Of a stretch of 12,575 nucleotides of DNA, positions 2,976 to 12,575 are shown in pieces. The DNA is taken from IMG/VR virus record IMGVR_UViG_2778261358_000013; one strand, given 5' to 3'. Positions within the stretch are counted from its first letter, which is position 1, and each line of letters opens with the position of its first letter. Under the pieces are notes generated by a model, which was given only the letters and a program-made list of their open reading frames with translations, searched no databases and was not told the origin of the DNA. A program made the translations under genes and the position numbers. This stretch comes from a virus. Lineage: Duplodnaviria > Heunggongvirae > Uroviricota > Caudoviricetes.

Positions 2976-4189
2976 TTACCAGTTCCACAGCGTGCCATCT
3001 TCCAGACGTGCGACTGGCAGATAAGCAGGTTCATAGGGATATTTCGCCGCCAGCTTTTCATCGAATTCGATGCCAAGACCCGGTTTGTCTCCCGGATGCA
3101 TATAGCCGTTATCGAAAGTCCAGTTGTGCGGGAAGACTTCGAGCATTTGTTCGGAATAACCCATGTACTCCTGGACACCGAAATTGGGGACCCACAGATC
3201 AAAGTGCAGCGCCGCAGCCATGCAGACTGGTGACAAATCGGAAGGACCGTGTGAGCCAGTACGTACCTGATACAGCGAAGCAAAATCGGCAATCCGGCGC
3301 ATACCGGTAATTCCGCCTGCATGGGTCAGCGTGGTGCGGATATAATCGATGAGTTGCTCTTCAATCAGTTGTTTGCAGTCCCAGATGCTGTTGAAGACTT
3401 CACCCACTGCGATGGGTGTGACGGTATGTTGGCGAATGAGACGGAAGCATTCCTGGTTTTCCGCAGGCGTCGGGTCTTCCATCCAGAACATGCGATAATC
3501 TTCAATGCTTTTACCAAAGCGCGCCGCTTCAATAGGCGTTAAGCGATGGTACATGTCATGCAGCAAATGTTCATTAAAACCAAACTTGTTACGTACCGCG
3601 TCAAACAATTTCGGCATGAAATCGAGGTATTTCTCCGTCGACCACAGCTGCTCTTCCGGCCACTGTCCTTTGGTTGCGGGTTCATAAGCCAGACCTTTAC
3701 CTTTCGACATGCCGTAGGTGGTTTTCATACCAGGGATTCCGCACTGCACGCGGATGGCTTTGAATCCCAGCTCCTGATGACGGGCATAATCATCCAGAGC
3801 TTCATCAATACTGTGACCGGTGGTATGGCAATAAACCATCACCCTTCACGAGACGCGCCGCCGAGTAACTGGTAAAGCGGCATGTTGGTAGCTTTGGCTT
3901 TAATATCCCACAGCGCCATATCAACCGCTGAAATGGCCGACATCGTAACCGGACCGCGACGCCAGTAAGCACCTTTATAGAAAAACTGCCAGATATCTTC
4001 GATACGGTGCGCATCGCGACCAATAAGCTGCGGACAAAGGTGATCCTGCAAATAAGAGGCCACGGAAAGCTCACGTCCATTGAGGGTGGCATCCCCAAGG
4101 CCCGTAATACCGTCCTCAGTGGTGATTTTTAATGTGACGAAATTACGCCCCGGACAGGTAACAAAAACTTCAGCCTTTACGATCTTCAT
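2976..4189 (-). pseudogene. rspA: rspA (enolase-superfamily mannonate-dehydratase-like starvation-sensing protein) interrupted by a 1-bp frameshift
   Basis: Two adjacent track ORFs (3839..4222 and 2976..3842) together read as RspA ([42 protein letters not shown]... then ...[27 protein letters not shown]...). The frame breaks at ..LLGGASREG|, where the plus strand has a ccc run at 3847-3849 and an intact gene would need one more C. Real start ATG 4187-4189 with SD AAGGA. Confidence 0.8.
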
Positions 4190-4394
4190 GTTCGATTCCT
4201 TGCATCGCTTGTCGTGATGCATGAAATCTACGCAACTGAGCTACTACCATACAAGTATAAAGATCGAAAAAAGCCGGAGTGATCACAAAAAAAGGCGTAT
4301 ATTTGCGCTGTGAATGGTTGACAAAAGATGAAATAGAATACCTTTTGTCAGCTGACACTTCCTCTTATCTTATTGATAAAATGGATTTATGTTC

Positions 4395-7116: not shown

Positions 7117-8526
7117 ATGTCCAAAAATGACCGAATGGTGGGCATCAGCCGCAGAACACTCGTTAAATCAACCGCGATAGGTTCTCTGGCGCTGGCTGCA
7201 GGCGGTTTTTCTTTACCGTTCACCCTGCGCAGTGCAGCGGCAACGGTACAACAGGCCAGCGAAAAAGTGATCTGGGGTGCCTGTTCCGTCAACTGTGGTA
7301 GCCGCTGTGCACTTCGTCTACATGTTAAAGATAATGAAGTGACCTGGGTGGAAACTGACAATACCGGCAGCGATGAGTACGGCAACCATCAGGTACGCGC
7401 CTGTTTGCGCGGTCGCTCCATCCGCCGGCGTATTAATCATCCCGATCGCTTGAATTACCCAATGAAACGCGTGGGTACACGCGGTGAAGGCAAATTCGAA
7501 CGGATTAGCTGGGATGAAGCCCTGGATACTATCGCCAGTAGCCTGAAAAAAACCGTCGAACAATATGGCAATGAGGCTGTATATATTCAGTACTCTTCGG
7601 GGATTGTTGGCGGCAATATGACCCGCTCTTCGCCATCAGCCTCGGCGGTCAAACGCCTGATGAACTGCTACGGCGGTTCACTCAATCAGTATGGCTCCTA
7701 CAGCACCGCGCAAATTTCCTGTGCCATGCCCTACACCTACGGCAGTAATGATGGCAACAGCACCACGGATATTGAAAACAGCAAGCTGGTCGTGATGTTT
7801 GGTAACAACCCGGCAGAAACCCGCATGAGCGGCGGTGGCATCACTTATCTTCTTGAAAAAGCGCGCGAGAAATCGAACGCCAAAATGATTGTTATCGATC
7901 CGCGATATACCGATACGGCTGCTGGTCGTGAAGATGAATGGCTCCCTATTCGCCCGGGCACCGATGCCGCGCTGGTTGCGGGTATTGCCTGGGTATTGAT
8001 TAACGAAAATCTCGTTGATCAACCTTTTCTCGATAAATACTGCGTCGGCTATGACGAAAAAACCTTACCCGCAGATGCACCCAAAAATGGTCACTATAAA
8101 GCCTATATTCTTGGTGAAGGTGATGATAACACAGCGAAAACGCCGCAGTGGGCTTCGCAAATTACCGGTATCCCGGTAGACCGTATCATCAAACTGGCGC
8201 GTGAAATTGGCACAGCAAAACCCGCTTATATCTGCCAGGGCTGGGGGCCGCAACGCCAGGCAAACGGCGAACTGACTGCACGCGCTATTGCTATGTTACC
8301 TATTTTGACGGGCAATGTCGGCATCAGCGGCGGAAATAGTGGCGCGCGTGAATCGACCTATACCATTACCATAGAACGCCTGCCGGTGCTGGATAATCCG
8401 GTCAAAACGTCAATCTCCTGCTTCAGCTGGACAGATGCTATCGATCATGGTCCGCAAATGACGGCAATCCGCGACGGCGTCCGCGGCAAAGATAAACTGG
8501 ATGTGCCCATTAAGTTCATCTGGAAC
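7117..8526 (+). pseudogene. ynfE: 5-prime portion (~470 codons) of ynfE, molybdopterin oxidoreductase / DMSO-reductase-family catalytic subunit, truncated by foreign DNA
   Basis: Tat signal (MSKNDRMVGISRRTLVKSTAIGSLALAAGG...AAA) and N-terminal Cys cluster (CSVNCGSRCALRLH) typical of DmsA/YnfE-type enzymes. The homologous reading ends at ...DVPIKFIWN (codon ending 8526). The track ORF then runs 22 unrelated codons (FKDLKRLLVRVTRDLSRPEVLH) to a stop at 8593-8595. Full-length proteins of this family are about 800 aa. Confidence 0.8.
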
Positions 8527-8787
8527 TTCAAGGACTTGAAGCGGTTACTCGTTAGAGTCACGAGAGACCTTAGTAGGCCTGAGGTCCTGCATTGAGTCAA
8601 GGACTTTGTGTCATTCTTTGTGCCAGACTTGTGTCATTAGACGGGATTTCTAGACGGCTGGTCAGGACCCCGGTGGCCTCGGTCTGGACTTGAGGCGGGG
8701 CTATGGGGGAAGTCTGCTGGCTTAATGTATTAGATGGTCATTCACATTTTTCTGTCAGAAACCATCGGTCCCACTGTGAGTCCAAAC
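8527..8787 (-). repeat. Non-coding terminal-repeat-like region of the foreign segment, with T7-group-like end motifs on the minus strand
   Basis: No ORF longer than 15 codons on the minus strand. Minus strand carries CTCACAGTG-G-GACC (8767-8780) and TTCCCCCATAG (8701-8711), resembling the first ~35 nt of the T7 terminal repeat (TCTCACAGTGTACGGACCTAAAGTTCCCCCATAGGGGG, from memory). Short direct repeats tcaaggactt (8528, 8596) and gactt(t)gtgtcatt (8600, 8618). Confidence 0.4.
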
Positions 8788-8943
8788 CTAAGCTCCCAGA
8801 AGCCCACCCACAGCCTTAGACAGAGTGTCGAATACATTCACACCGAGTCGACCGGAGAGGACCATATAGAGACCCACAGAGAGGAACACGAGTTTATAGA
8901 CCAGAGTCAGGAGGGACCTTAGGTCTGCGGAAGTCATGGACAT
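8788..8943 (-). CDS. Small single-pass membrane protein (51 aa), hypothetical
   Basis: Hand-translated ORF below the track size cutoff: MSMTSADLRSLLTLVYKLVFLSVGLYMVLSGRLGVNVFDTLSKAVGGLLGA. Strong SD AGGAGG (complement of 8949-8954) 4 nt upstream of ATG 8941-8943. One hydrophobic helix (LLTLVYKLVFLSVGLYMVL). Last ORF before the terminal non-coding region. Confidence 0.45.
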   Translation of the reverse strand: MSMTSADLRSLLTLVYKLVFLSVGLYMVLSGRLGVNVFDTLSKAVGGLLGA

Positions 8944-8996
8944 AAAGCCTCCTTCGTCTATTGTACTACTGCACTAGATAACTAGTACAAAACAAA

Positions 8997-9021
8997 GGTC
9001 CAGACCATTGGTCCAGACCAT
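8997..9021. repeat. Tandem direct repeat 2 x ggtccagaccat (period 13)
   Basis: 8997-9008 and 9010-9021 are identical 12-mers separated by one T, in a 238-bp non-coding gap (8944-9181). Each copy contains the GGTC-NN-GACC palindrome. Confidence 0.6.
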
Positions 9022-9181
9022 AGTTATCATGATGATTGGAACGATTGAACGGTAGGCACTTTACATCTCACCCACTGTTCAGCTTCAGCCAGTGACCAGC
9101 ATAGCCGCTTATAGACTCTGCGTGTCATCCAGATTGTTGCTTGATATCGTCCACCCTCCACAGGCTGTATAGATGTCTTAA

Positions 9182-9421
9182 TCACAGTGACAGGCCACCA
9201 CCTGAAGTCCTGCTGATATTCAGTCCAGACTTACCCCTGCTCATGGTCTTACCTCCCTCGGTCTCATGACCTTGGGTATCGACTACAGCTTGCTGAGCGT
9301 CATCTGGAGGAGCTACAGGAGGAGCTACAGGAGGCGGGACCGAAGCCCCACCTTGAGTCCCACCACCACCTGTCAGGCCCTTGGCGATGGACCTGAAGCC
9401 TTTACTAATGCTCTTACCCAT
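9182..9421 (-). CDS. Hypothetical Gly/Pro/Ala-rich small protein (79 aa), probably disordered
   Basis: ORF begins 5 nt after the stop of the upstream 328-aa gene, with no separate SD (possible translational coupling). Contains GGGGTQGG and PPPVAPPVAPP, the latter encoded by a 12-bp tandem repeat. Low-complexity, so the coding call is tentative. Confidence 0.35.
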   Translation of the reverse strand: MGKSISKGFRSIAKGLTGGGGTQGGASVPPPVAPPVAPPDDAQQAVVDTQGHETEGGKTMSRGKSGLNISRTSGGGLSL

Positions 9422-9426
9422 TGGTC

Positions 9427-10413
9427 TTACGCTTCGGTCTTGGTGAACTTCAGGCGTTTGACTACAGGCAGGACGGCAGTAGCTGAGCCAGTGCCCATCT
9501 TGATGGTCGTAGCAGCTTCAGCGACAACGAACACTTTACCGAGGATTTCCAGAGAGTGAGACTGAGAGTCGCCATCACGTGAAAGGATGACCGTAATATT
9601 CTCGCCATCGTGACGGAAGCAACCGAAGCTAAGAGCCGTAAAACGCTTAGCCATCATGAACACGCCACGGTCTTCACCGTTGTAATACGCAATATCCGTC
9701 CCCAGCATATCGACGATAGCGTCTTCACCACCGAAGCCCTGCTTAGCAGCCAGACGGGAGAGAGCCTTGAGGTGTGACTCATGGGCGATGATACCGTAAT
9801 CAGTAACCTCAGAACCGAAAGAAGATTCGGTGTTGTCATACAGAGCATCCATGATAGCATCTGCCTTAGCGGTCAGGCTGCCAGTCAGGACCGGAAGCTC
9901 TACGGTCTTCAACAGTTTGGAGGACTCCAGAACGTCGACCATGCGAGCGTTGATGGTACGGACCACATTCTCACAGATGTTCATAGCATCCTGCTGAAGT
10001 GTGCCCTGAGTGAATCCGGTGGATGACTTGGCGTCCCAGAGCTTGGTCTGCTCAGAGATGAGAATAGCCCGCTCGATTGGTTCGACCACGATTTCTTGTC
10101 CAGACGGAACGGTCACGACTTCAGGTCGCTTACCACCACGGACAGGAACAACCACAGAGCGGTTAGCCAGAGTGTGAGCAATGATTGGAGTAGGCAGGCT
10201 ATTGCGGGTAGGCAGGACTTCTACAGGGAACGGGATGTTCTCCTGAGCGGATTTCAGAACACCATTCAGCATTGTCTTAACCAGTTTAGCCAGCTCAAAG
10301 GCGTAGACCTGAGGGTCTGCGTTAGTTGGCAATCCTTCGTTAATCTGAATGTTGTCGGTGTCGGTGATACGTACTGGCTCAATGCCGAACTGTAAAGCGT
10401 CTTTAATCGTCAT
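9427..10413 (-). CDS. Hypothetical protein (328 aa), function unknown
   Basis: Long ORF. The track start at 10422 is a TTG; the likely start is ATG 10411-10413 (MTIKDALQFG...) with SD AGGAGA 9 nt upstream. No catalytic or nucleotide-binding motif recognised by eye. Confidence 0.7.
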   Translation of the reverse strand: MTIKDALQFGIEPVRITDTDNIQINEGLPTNADPQVYAFELAKLVKTMLNGVLKSAQENIPFPVEVLPTRNSLPTPIIAHTLANRSVVVPVRGGKRPEVVTVPSGQEIVVEPIERAILISEQTKLWDAKSSTGFTQGTLQQDAMNICENVVRTINARMVDVLESSKLLKTVELPVLTGSLTAKADAIMDALYDNTESSFGSEVTDYGIIAHESHLKALSRLAAKQGFGGEDAIVDMLGTDIAYYNGEDRGVFMMAKRFTALSFGCFRHDGENITVILSRDGDSQSHSLEILGKVFVVAEAATTIKMGTGSATAVLPVVKRLKFTKTEA

Positions 10414-10488
10414 AATAATCAATCTCCTGAATTAGTTTGGATACTGTGGGTCCCGACATCAGGTCAGGACCACTTGTGTGTCTGTGTC

Positions 10489-10980
10489 TTAGAGGCTGTC
10501 CATCCAGTTGTCCGTGGACTCAATGTCAGCGACCATAGAAGCACGGGAGCGCCCAGCGGAATGGGTAGCACTGCGGAGGTGCTCACCATAGGTCCGGCGT
10601 TCAGCTTTGACCTGTTCACGGCGCTGTAGCTCTTTCTGCCACTCTGCATCAGTCATGTTCTCTTCACGCATACGCTCAGCCTGAATGCGCTGCTCTTTAG
10701 CAATACGCTCAGCTTCGGCTCGCTTGTTCTGCTGGCGGCGACCATAGGCGGTCATCAGGTCATTACTGAAGAAGTTACCAATGGTCACGCCAGCTTCAGC
10801 CAGAGCTTCCAGTAACTCCATTGCCTCGCGGCTGGTAGACGGCAGGCCTGACAGGTAGCCCGGAATGAGGGTCTTGATAGCGAGCGACAGCGGATAGGGC
10901 TGACCATCCAGACTCACAGTATTCTCGTAGAGATTGATGTCGGTGACTGACAGTTTCCAGTCTTGGTTATTGAATAACAT
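10489..10980 (-). CDS. Hypothetical protein (163 aa) with charged Arg/Glu/Gln-rich predicted helical segment
   Basis: SD AGGAG 8 nt upstream of ATG 10978-10980. Central segment QQNKRAEAERIAKEQRIQAERMREENMTDAEWQKELQRREQVKAERR is typical of a coiled coil or single alpha-helix domain. Confidence 0.65.
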   Translation of the reverse strand: MLFNNQDWKLSVTDINLYENTVSLDGQPYPLSLAIKTLIPGYLSGLPSTSREAMELLEALAEAGVTIGNFFSNDLMTAYGRRQQNKRAEAERIAKEQRIQAERMREENMTDAEWQKELQRREQVKAERRTYGEHLRSATHSAGRSRASMVADIESTDNWMDSL

Positions 10981-11079
10981 AGTAATTACTCCTCTTGAGA
11001 GTTGAGACTATCGGTCAACCACAGGCGTGTTCAGTCCTGCGGCGTCTCCCCGCATCGGTCATCTCAAAAGGTGTTTAAA

Positions 11080-11262
11080 TTAGGCAGACAGTTTCATAGA
11101 GACCAGTTGCGCTATTAGCTCGTCTCGTGATTGGTGCTGGCGGGTCTCATCTTCTGGGTCCAGACCTAGCTCCTTCAGGATGACTTCAGTCCGGTAGCCA
11201 CGGTAACGGAGAGTCATGCGACCCTCAGGTGTGCGTGGGTCGATATGTTGTTTAGTTGTCAT
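11080..11262 (-). CDS. Hypothetical small protein (60 aa)
   Basis: ATG 11260-11262 lies 2 nt after the TAA stop of the upstream 84-aa gene, with SD GAGGA 9 nt upstream. Same strand and codon style as its neighbours. Confidence 0.5.
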   Translation of the reverse strand: MTTKQHIDPRTPEGRMTLRYRGYRTEVILKELGLDPEDETRQHQSRDELIAQLVSMKLSA

Positions 11263-11264
11263 TG

Positions 11265-11519
11265 TTAGAAGTCCTCGTTAGACCAATCATCCACGTCAAA
11301 TTCACTGGTGATAGGTGCTTGGAAGTTAGGTAGACCCTCTGGTATCTCTAGAGGCAGTCGCTCGTCGATTCTCAGTGCCATCTCTTCGTATATATGCCGA
11401 AGCAGAGAAGTCAGTAAGATAGGGTCCACAGGATGCTCAGGGCCGTGTCTCTCAATGAAGCACATGGTTGTCGCTATTGACTCCATAATCAGTTCATCAG
11501 TGAGTCGCTTAGAACCCAT
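11265..11519 (-). CDS. Strongly acidic small protein (84 aa) with acidic C-terminal tail ending in Phe (...EFDVDDWSNEDF)
   Basis: The track ORF is 101 aa from ATG 11570, but the likely start is ATG 11517-11519 (MGSKRLTDELIMES...), which overlaps the last codons of the upstream 281-aa gene (sequence ctATGGGTTCTAAgcg; stop at 11509-11511) as in translational coupling. About 18 Asp/Glu against 6 Lys/Arg. Confidence 0.55.
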   Translation of the reverse strand: MGSKRLTDELIMESIATTMCFIERHGPEHPVDPILLTSLLRHIYEEMALRIDERLPLEIPEGLPNFQAPITSEFDVDDWSNEDF

Positions 11520-12354
11520 AGTCGGACCCCTTGCCCGCTGCTGCTTTCTGGGACTTTGTAGCCTTACCATTCAGGTGAGAATCCACCAGACGACGGACAA
11601 CCTTGATATTGGATGTGCGCATGTCATGAGCGATATCCTTCCAGTTATCCTTCAGCCAGTCATAACCCTTGCGTAGAATCTTGATGGTAGGCTCTTTGTC
11701 GTTAGGCTGTGGCTGTAGACGATAGTAGCCGTTGATCTCACCTTTCTTATTGAAGATGGCTCGTGGACGTCCGGTCGATAGGTCTATAGCCGTAATGCCA
11801 AACTCAGTAACACGCTTGGTGTAGAATGGGTTAGGACGACACAGGGTCTTCAGATATCCAGTCAGGACGCTAGCTGTCAGCAGCTTAGAGCTGGTCAACT
11901 TAAGGTCCAGAGCTTTAATAACCTCGGTAGGCGTGGCTCCTGACTTGGAGTCCAGCTTGGAGTCGAGGACGATAGCACCGGGCGCATAGCTGATAGCTTT
12001 AGTCTGTGCAACCTGAAGTTTCTGGGCCTGAAGTTCGAGGACCTCTTGCTCCTTCTGGCGAATATAGGCTAGGACCTTACGACGCACAGCTTTAGACTCA
12101 CGCATCCCGACTAGTAGAAGCTGGTCAGTGTTGAGGGTATAGCTTTTAACGTCCTTCCCGAAGCTTACGAAAATTTCGTAGGTCACATTTTGACCTTCCA
12201 GCTCATCCTCAATACGGGACACAAAGTCGTTATTACGGACAGGCTTCTCCCCCGCTTCTTCACGAGCCGGATTAATAACCTTGGTTAGAAAATCGTGGGA
12301 GGTCATAGACACAAGCTGGTCGAGGTTAATGATGCTAATTTCTTTGGATGACAT
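11509..12354 (-). CDS. Hypothetical protein (281 aa), function unknown
   Basis: Long ORF with SD AAGGAG 9 nt upstream of ATG 12352-12354. Lys/Arg-rich C-terminus. No motif recognised by eye. First gene of the minus-strand run visible in the window. Confidence 0.7.
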   Translation of the reverse strand: MSSKEISIINLDQLVSMTSHDFLTKVINPAREEAGEKPVRNNDFVSRIEDELEGQNVTYEIFVSFGKDVKSYTLNTDQLLLVGMRESKAVRRKVLAYIRQKEQEVLELQAQKLQVAQTKAISYAPGAIVLDSKLDSKSGATPTEVIKALDLKLTSSKLLTASVLTGYLKTLCRPNPFYTKRVTEFGITAIDLSTGRPRAIFNKKGEINGYYRLQPQPNDKEPTIKILRKGYDWLKDNWKDIAHDMRTSNIKVVRRLVDSHLNGKATKSQKAAAGKGSDYGF

Positions 12355-12496
12355 ATCGTTGTACTCCTTTTGTTATGCCTCCTGAAGTCACACCCTGAAA
12401 GCCTACTCAAGCCCCCAACGATAGGGAGACTCACAGGCAACAGGAGACATACAGAAAGACTTGAGGTAATAAGGTCGTGTGAAGACCATAGTTGAT

Positions 12497-12534
12497 AAGT
12501 AAGCGTCAACGGAGCACCGTATTGACGCTTATTT
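12497..12534. promoter_or_regulatory. Strong inverted repeat / stem-loop upstream of the 281-aa gene (candidate processing site, terminator or operator)
   Basis: Perfect 10-bp inverted repeat taagcgtcaa (12500-12509) / ttgacgctta (12522-12531) around a 12-nt centre that itself pairs cgg/ccg. Flanked by aataaataa on one side. Lies ~150 bp upstream of the 281-aa start. Confidence 0.4.
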
Positions 12535-12575
12535 ATTAGTGAGTACTACGTTCCATGGCAGGAGTTCGTCAACTC

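Follow-up and report, generated by a model that had tools for sequence, protein, structure and literature searches.

A 51-codon open reading frame (ORF) on the minus strand, at positions 8788-8943 of the 12,575-nucleotide stretch of DNA analysed here (the window), raises the question of whether it encodes a real protein and, if so, what a membrane peptide of this size may do for the element that carries it. By sequence, the ORF is a real, conserved and unannotated gene for a small membrane protein, whose function we infer only; as a finding, the ORF itself is less unusual than its surroundings, a probable new satellite family.

Ordinary Escherichia coli chromosome fills the left two thirds of the window, with a Qin-type integrase, rspB, rspA, ynfA-D and speG. 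The ynfE gene, which begins at 7117, is interrupted after ...PIKFIWN near 8526; to the right of this point every long ORF lies on the minus strand and is part of an inserted element. The same element is complete in E. coli UMNK88, where it is about 6.5 kb long and flanked by the two ynfE halves. At its far end a 540-aa tyrosine integrase is annotated; the other annotated genes encode a 155-aa protein, a KilA-N protein and proteins of 163 and 329 aa, and the final 870 bp are without any annotation. ynfE has been listed among the genes interrupted by integrative elements in the TIGER survey (PMC7192596). The rspA gene (2976-4222, minus strand) is split into ORFs of 288 and 127 aa by a frameshift or sequencing error, the UMNK88 copy being intact at 404 aa; and an insertion-sequence end at about 12490-12575 breaks the island upstream of the KilA-N/Ant-like gene, the same 77 bp adjoining a 537-aa transposase in lambda-like phage records.

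The cassette that contains the 51-codon ORF is carried, once per genome and on the chromosome, by 140 of 5426 complete E. coli genomes (about 2.6%). It is also present in Shigella, Leclercia and gut and environmental metagenomes, and a shorter allele, described below, is found in relatives from Citrobacter, Buttiauxella and Enterobacter. Among the 40 RefSeq E. coli matches listed, none has a feature annotated under the match. The gene is an example of a conserved small membrane protein overlooked by annotation.

Coding status and predicted structure of the 51-aa protein

The ORF is the final one of the element and is followed by about 260 nt of non-coding DNA up to the ynfE junction. Its Shine-Dalgarno (SD) sequence is AGGAGG or GGAGG at a distance of 4-5 nt in nearly all alleles; the Leclercia locus (L003) has lost it. 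One further minus-strand AGGAGG is present within the island portion of the window, at 12378-12383; this is not a normal SD of the listed 281-aa ORF, since at 23 nt it is too far from the start of that ORF (12354).

DNA of the ORF gathered from 21 loci, in genomes and metagenomes, yields 13 distinct nucleotide alleles, all of which keep 51 open codons. The variable columns are distributed as 16, 14 and 33 over codon positions 1, 2 and 3, and the ratio dN/dS in this frame is 0.20 (Nei-Gojobori, 13 alleles). Four of the other five frames have a dN/dS above 1.2; the fifth reaches 0.30, but contains stops in every sequence. The comparison with L033, whose allele diverges most at 68% nucleotide identity, gives a dN/dS of 0.30, with conservative changes and again 51 codons. 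At the protein level, a search of 5.8 billion proteins returned 42 clusters which, over full-length matches, are about 80-100% identical to the query. Most of these clusters are 51 aa long, the longer ones arising where the start was called further upstream or a stop codon had been lost, and the database variants differ by in-frame insertions and deletions of +4, -3, -3 and -4 residues. Because the changes concentrate at third positions, dN/dS is low and the frame stays open, the 51-aa frame is, on the evidence of these alleles, a genuine protein-coding gene under purifying selection. A 62-aa ORF on the plus strand (8734-8922) was considered as well and rejected, having stops in other alleles or a dN/dS above 1.2.

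The protein is predicted to contain one long hydrophobic helix. The Kyte-Doolittle mean over 19 residues reaches 2.09 at residues 11-29, a value attained by just 5% of the 59 window ORFs of 40-80 aa, while the summed Hessa scale, at +0.66 kcal/mol, is borderline because of the invariant Lys17. An AlphaFold2 model built on a 14-sequence alignment (pLDDT 86.6) places a 26-residue hydrophobic helix at residues 5-30; a GRLG turn follows, and residues 35-49 form an amphipathic helix of 15 residues. The hydrophobic helix is almost invariant, variation being found at residues 6, 9, 34-37, 47 and 51, and this near-invariance exceeds the needs of simple anchoring. Most of the basic residues (R32 and K43) follow the helix; since they do so, and since the short form of the peptide ends in RR, the positive-inside rule suggests that the C-terminus faces inwards and the N-terminus outwards.

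The first-pass annotation had described an unannotated ORF with an AGGAGG SD and one transmembrane helix, possibly a holin-like or membrane-targeting peptide or a superinfection-exclusion factor, which a lack of frame conservation in relatives would refute. The SD lies 4 nt before the ATG; the frame clearly passes the conservation check, being open in all 13 alleles with the dN/dS values given above; the UMNK88 record is blank from the ynfE fragment to the 329-aa gene; and hydropathy and the modelled helix both support membrane targeting.

No family match to the protein was found in Pfam, PHROGs, NCBIfam or PADLOC. Run as a profile against 1.84 billion representatives, the 51-aa family retrieved its own members alone, as did a word-indexed protein search with the 51-aa protein, and tblastn against 50,697 phage records gave a chance match at E = 6 and nothing else. 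The Pfam match to DUF6131 is a chance one (E = 0.047, 14 bits against a cut-off of 25), and a Foldseek search with the model was uninformative, returning generic helical hairpins at E > 4.

The island, its terminal cassette and the attachment-site arm

The coordinates of the ORF and of the features around it are collected in Table 1. In addition to those listed, the island contains a scaffold-like 163-aa gene, Rha, KilA(-N) or Ant-like regulators and a 540-aa tyrosine integrase. The 79-aa protein also matches 'Protein 7.3' in PDB entry 9jyz (E = 0.0034), and its match to PF11653 is weak. The 331-aa protein has no sequence family match and no relatives outside its own family; its AlphaFold2 model is poor (pLDDT 42.7), and the weak Foldseek matches of this model, at E of about 1e-3, are with few exceptions to encapsulins or to capsid proteins of phages, so that the protein is probably a capsid protein of the HK97 fold. 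Neither the capsid-like nor the gp7.3-like protein had a match by tblastn against phages.

Table 1. Features at the island end next to ynfE, with positions in the window
Feature	Positions	Strand	Details
Island	8527-12497		full copy in locus L001, 14031-20595
att core	8517..8526	.	CATCTGGAAC (minus strand: GTTCCAGATG); the ynfE 5' fragment ends here
Palindrome CTTCAAG-GA-CTTGAAG	8526-8541		beside the core / ynfE sequence
Non-coding attR arm	8527..8787	-	alignment of 12 loci; attL/attR/attP comparison
TTGACTCAATG block	8600-8590		in the attR arm; found in the other arm as well
Three TGACACAAAG-type direct repeats	8636-8604		in the attR arm
Small membrane protein CDS	8788..8943	-	51 codons and stop, MSMTSADLRSLLTLVYKLVFLSVGLYMVLSGRLGVNVFDTLSKAVGGLLGA
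Shine-Dalgarno AGGAGG	8948..8953	-	4 nt before the ATG of the 51-aa ORF
AT-rich spacer with T-run and short palindromes	8956..8996	-	weak sigma-70-like match
Terminator-like hairpin	8997..9019	-	GGTCTGGACC AAU GGTCTGGACC, then UUUGUUUUGU; found by scan
79-aa T7 gp7.3-like gene (virion and host-range protein)	9182..9421	-	phrog_1320, 3e-11
331-aa probable HK97-fold capsid protein	9427..10422	-	Foldseek matches

Larger relatives of the island, of about 11 kb (L030 and L031), carry a 1314-aa internal virion protein of the T7 gp16 type (phrog_342, 8e-232) together with an HNH endonuclease; the SLT domain seen in these relatives is part of the gp16-type protein. Portal, terminase, tail and replication genes were not recognised among the island ORFs scanned. 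Because gp7.3-like, capsid and gp16-type genes occur with an integrase and regulators, and none of those other genes was recognised, the island appears to be a satellite of T7-like phages. Our search of the literature for a satellite integrated in ynfE or dependent on T7 found the TIGER survey, which lists ynfE, and no description of such an element.

Upstream of the 51-aa ORF, the order of hairpin, AT-rich spacer, strong SD and ORF is kept whatever precedes it. In two loci (L029 and L015) the capsid-like gene comes directly before this cassette; in the window, L001 and L002 it is the gp7.3-like gene, in some cases together with a 52-aa ORF; and in the relatives of about 11 kb it is a 54-aa ORF, the gp16-type gene and the HNH endonuclease. 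The 52-aa ORF (9027-9185, minus strand; VIKTSIQPVEGGRYQATIWMTRRVYKRLCWSLAEAEQWVRCKVPTVQSFQSS), which separates the gp7.3-like gene from the hairpin, has no family match; it is present in islands L001, L003 and L033 and precisely missing in L002 and L012.

The hairpin of the window has ten pairs, a folding energy of -16.2 kcal/mol and a z-score of -4.4. In 20 of the 21 distinct upstream sequences a hairpin with a T-rich tail is found 45-55 nt before the start codon, and the stems differ among loci by compensatory changes, as in GGTCAGAC...GTCTGGCC and GGTCAGGATC-UUCG-GGTCTTGGCC. It sits at the end of the upstream structural operon, which it closes as a terminator-like element. Decamers resembling GGTCTGGACC are enriched (21 matches with at most two mismatches, 8.3 expected), 20 of them inside the island (8531-12575) and some of them intergenic, for instance at 10449-10471 between the 163-aa and 331-aa genes.

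The spacer is about 40 nt long and of two sequence types, both with short inverted repeats. In the type found in the window the sigma-70-like match consists of TGTACT (8989-8984) and TACAAT (8965-8960) separated by 18 nt; it agrees at 8 of 12 positions, under the threshold of the scan tool, and the other type, TGGACC-18-TAACAT, likewise agrees at 8 of 12. Inspection by eye of the spacer and of the DNA upstream of the other island genes recognised no T7-type promoter. Pairing of the SD is present in the minimum-energy fold, and sequestration of the SD was rejected, the 5' structure not being significant (z = -1.4). No known RNA family in Rfam matched either strand over 8400-9500. A conserved antisense promoter was not found across alleles; promoter-like antisense sites occur in single alleles at differing positions.

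Nine related loci without the 51-aa form (L004-L010, L013 and L014; for instance L006, 7095-7175) carry in its place a hydrophobic ORF of 25-29 codons, MDLHKVYLVVFLLKLGLVVWLWAIRR and variants, with the same hairpin, spacer types and AGGAGG before it and the same conserved block after it. An ORF of this length is too short for gene callers. The short peptide is more hydrophobic than the 51-aa protein (Hessa sum of -0.9 to -2.1) and ends in RR. VY(K)LV(V)FL is common to the two proteins; homology between them is not statistically supported, a profile-profile comparison aligning 7 residues with a probability of 1.8%. The two forms are treated here as positional equivalents, with homology unproven. 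A hydrophobic peptide is present in every member of the island family examined and, because relatives of the island have the 25-29-aa hydrophobic ORF at this place, what is conserved throughout the family is a predicted short transmembrane peptide in a fixed cassette. The gene is one of the few features common to this family of islands with T7-type virion genes.

Downstream of the ORF, the non-coding DNA of about 260 nt is strongly conserved in an alignment of twelve loci and includes the block CGATG..TGACAGAAAAATGTGA..CATCTAATAC. The direct repeats of the TGACACAAAG type, the TTGACTCAATG block and the palindrome are probably binding sites of the integrase or an accessory protein. An insertion of about 21 nt in this arm, at 8544-8569 (within GGTCTCTCGTGACTCTAACGAGTAACCG), is shared among the twelve aligned loci with L021 alone. 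The core GTTCCAGATG is common to both UMNK88 junctions and to attP. In three metagenome contigs (L018-L020; L018, 2215-2561) the ORF, this arm, the core, the other arm and the integrase follow one another in a joined form, the integrase ATG lying about 70 nt from the core; this joined attP points to copies of the island that are excised, either as circles or as concatemers.

The first-pass annotation had described the ORF as the last before a non-coding end region, the terminal region. It is indeed the last ORF of the element, but the DNA beyond it is no phage genome terminus: because the arm is conserved, the junctions share a core and the joined form occurs in contigs, the comparison of the loci identifies the region as an attachment-site arm, the attR arm of an island in ynfE. 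A terminator-like site between the 51-aa ORF and the integrase was not found in the joined form, and co-transcription of the two in the excised state is therefore possible.

Possible roles of the peptide

Our best guess, which we put forward tentatively, is that the peptide may be a membrane-active effector of the island's own cycle, acting on lysis timing or through membrane depolarisation. A role in the island's own cycle is suggested because the peptide is core, not variable. A membrane-active role is suggested because of this core status, the near-invariant helix with its polar or small-residue face and the precedent of LidI, a satellite protein discussed below. The peptide would insert in the inner membrane with its N-terminus out and its C-terminus in, self-associate through the nearly invariant polar and small face of the helix (S10, T13, K17, G24 and G31; GxxxG at 46-50), and perturb membrane integrity or the proton-motive force while late transcription of the island is on. 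As a result, the timing of lysis would be set or advanced, or growth of the helper aborted, by a mode of action like that of small holins, LidI of the PLE satellites and type I toxins.

A bolder reading, which we consider quite unlikely, is that the cassette is the membrane effector of an undescribed enterobacterial satellite family that parasitises virulent T7-like phages, and that it is co-transcribed with the integrase in the excised state only. Such excised-only co-transcription is proposed because the cassette is oriented towards attP and no terminator stands ahead of the integrase gene. If true, membrane action and re-integration would be coupled to the mobile state of the island.

The att-proximal zone of prophages and P4-like satellites often houses protective genes expressed in the lysogen. 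The cassette is att-proximal, between the structural genes and the integrase, and its layout is like that of a moron, with a terminator-like hairpin, a spacer that contains a weak promoter-like match and then a strong SD; the gp7.3-like and gp16-like neighbours are ejection-related proteins of T7-like virions. These features would fit a superinfection-exclusion or defence gene, whose inner-membrane peptide, expressed from the integrated island, blocks genome ejection by T7-like phages or rival islands. We regard this explanation as unlikely, although it survives better than the other alternatives: no PADLOC or other defence family is matched, all family members examined have a hydrophobic peptide, unlike the usual variable defence cargo, and the allele of 25-29 aa offers little surface for specific recognition.

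The near-invariance of the helix, in which small-xxx-small motifs hint at specific packing between helices, might instead point to a small regulatory membrane protein that modulates an inner-membrane protein of the host or helper and leaves the membrane itself undamaged, as with MgrB, AcrZ, SgrT or an antiholin. Many bacterial proteins below 50 aa work in this manner, according to a review (PMC12648545). A partner gene linked to the ORF is absent, however, and the short allele shares with the long one just VY(K)LV(V)FL, which is hard to fit to one conserved partner; a regulator of this kind is very unlikely.

The size, hydrophobicity and basic C-terminal flank of both alleles are alike in resembling type I toxins (review PMC8309996), and such toxins are common on prophages, hokW-sokW being an example (PMC8621323). 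The peptide could accordingly be read as the toxin of an addiction module that stabilises the island with an antisense RNA as antitoxin. Such a module is highly unlikely, given that neither strand matches Rfam, no antisense promoter is conserved in position across alleles, the 5' structure that would sequester the SD is not significant at the z-score given above, and no Hok, Ldr, TisB or similar family is matched.

Finally, that the frame makes no functional protein and is kept as attP-arm DNA or as leader RNA for integrase transcription in the excised form is extremely unlikely: the ORF does adjoin a highly conserved attP arm, and the joined form does lack a terminator between ORF and integrase gene, but substitutions favour third positions, dN/dS is well below 1 without stops in this frame alone, start codon, SD and length are conserved with indels in frame, and the body of the ORF can be exchanged for another hydrophobic ORF while the flanks are unchanged.

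The function of the peptide may reveal how the island handles a virulent helper phage, whether by lysis control, exclusion or stabilisation, and the 51-aa gene provides a simple genetic handle of 156 bp.

Comparison with known systems

The PLE satellites of Vibrio cholerae carry previously unannotated transmembrane ORFs, termed LidI, that are conserved in synteny and fall into two size classes (PMC7182436). LidI is expressed on phage infection and accelerates lysis (PMC7182436). Like the 51-aa gene on its probable satellite, LidI is encoded by a satellite, was at first unannotated and was recognised by its conserved position; both are defined by transmembrane character alone, and both come in two length classes. 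The 51-aa gene differs in that LidI is 66 or 121 aa long and its helper is a myovirus, and neither the profile search of 1.84 billion representatives nor the word-indexed search detected similarity between the two proteins. Infection-time expression and faster lysis have been demonstrated for LidI, whereas for the 51-aa gene both are conjectural.

Small holins, such as T7 gp17.5 and others of classes II and III, are likewise small, phage-associated proteins with a hydrophobic helix. Holins have at least one transmembrane domain, and in the 51-aa protein one is predicted by the Kyte-Doolittle value and the AlphaFold2 helix, with the Hessa sum borderline. A Met1/Met3 pair is a further likeness, present in most alleles and reduced by the loss of Met3 in L015 and L033. 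In contrast to small holins, the 51-aa protein is without a charged C-terminal tail, its own C-terminal part (GRLGVNVFDTLSKAVGGLLGA) being amphipathic with charges at just R32, D39 and K43. It is also without the neighbours of a lysis cassette, standing beside the capsid-like and gp7.3-like genes, the 52-aa ORF and the att arm in an island with no endolysin or spanin, and it matches no holin family in Pfam, PHROG or NCBIfam. A holin-like role, one of those suggested in the first-pass annotation, is a functional possibility at most. As regards the small proteins of T7 itself (gp17.5 and gp19.5), tblastn against the 50,697 phage records found no similarity to ORFs of T7-like phages.

The type I toxins Hok, TisB, ShoB, ZorO and Ldr resemble the island peptides in being hydrophobic and helical with basic flanks, the island peptides being 25-51 aa long, and they are often found on prophage-like elements, as is the 51-aa gene. 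Both the 51-aa and the 25-29-aa alleles are small hydrophobic membrane peptides of less than 60 aa by prediction. The 51-aa gene differs from these toxins in its strong, exposed SD, theirs being typically sequestered, and no signal for an antitoxin RNA was found for it.

The superinfection-exclusion proteins T4 Imm, P22 SieA and HK97 gp15 share with the 51-aa protein a predicted inner-membrane location and a self-contained cassette at the edge of an integrated element. They are larger, and no homology to it was found; the 51-aa peptide belongs to the core of its element family and is not accessory.
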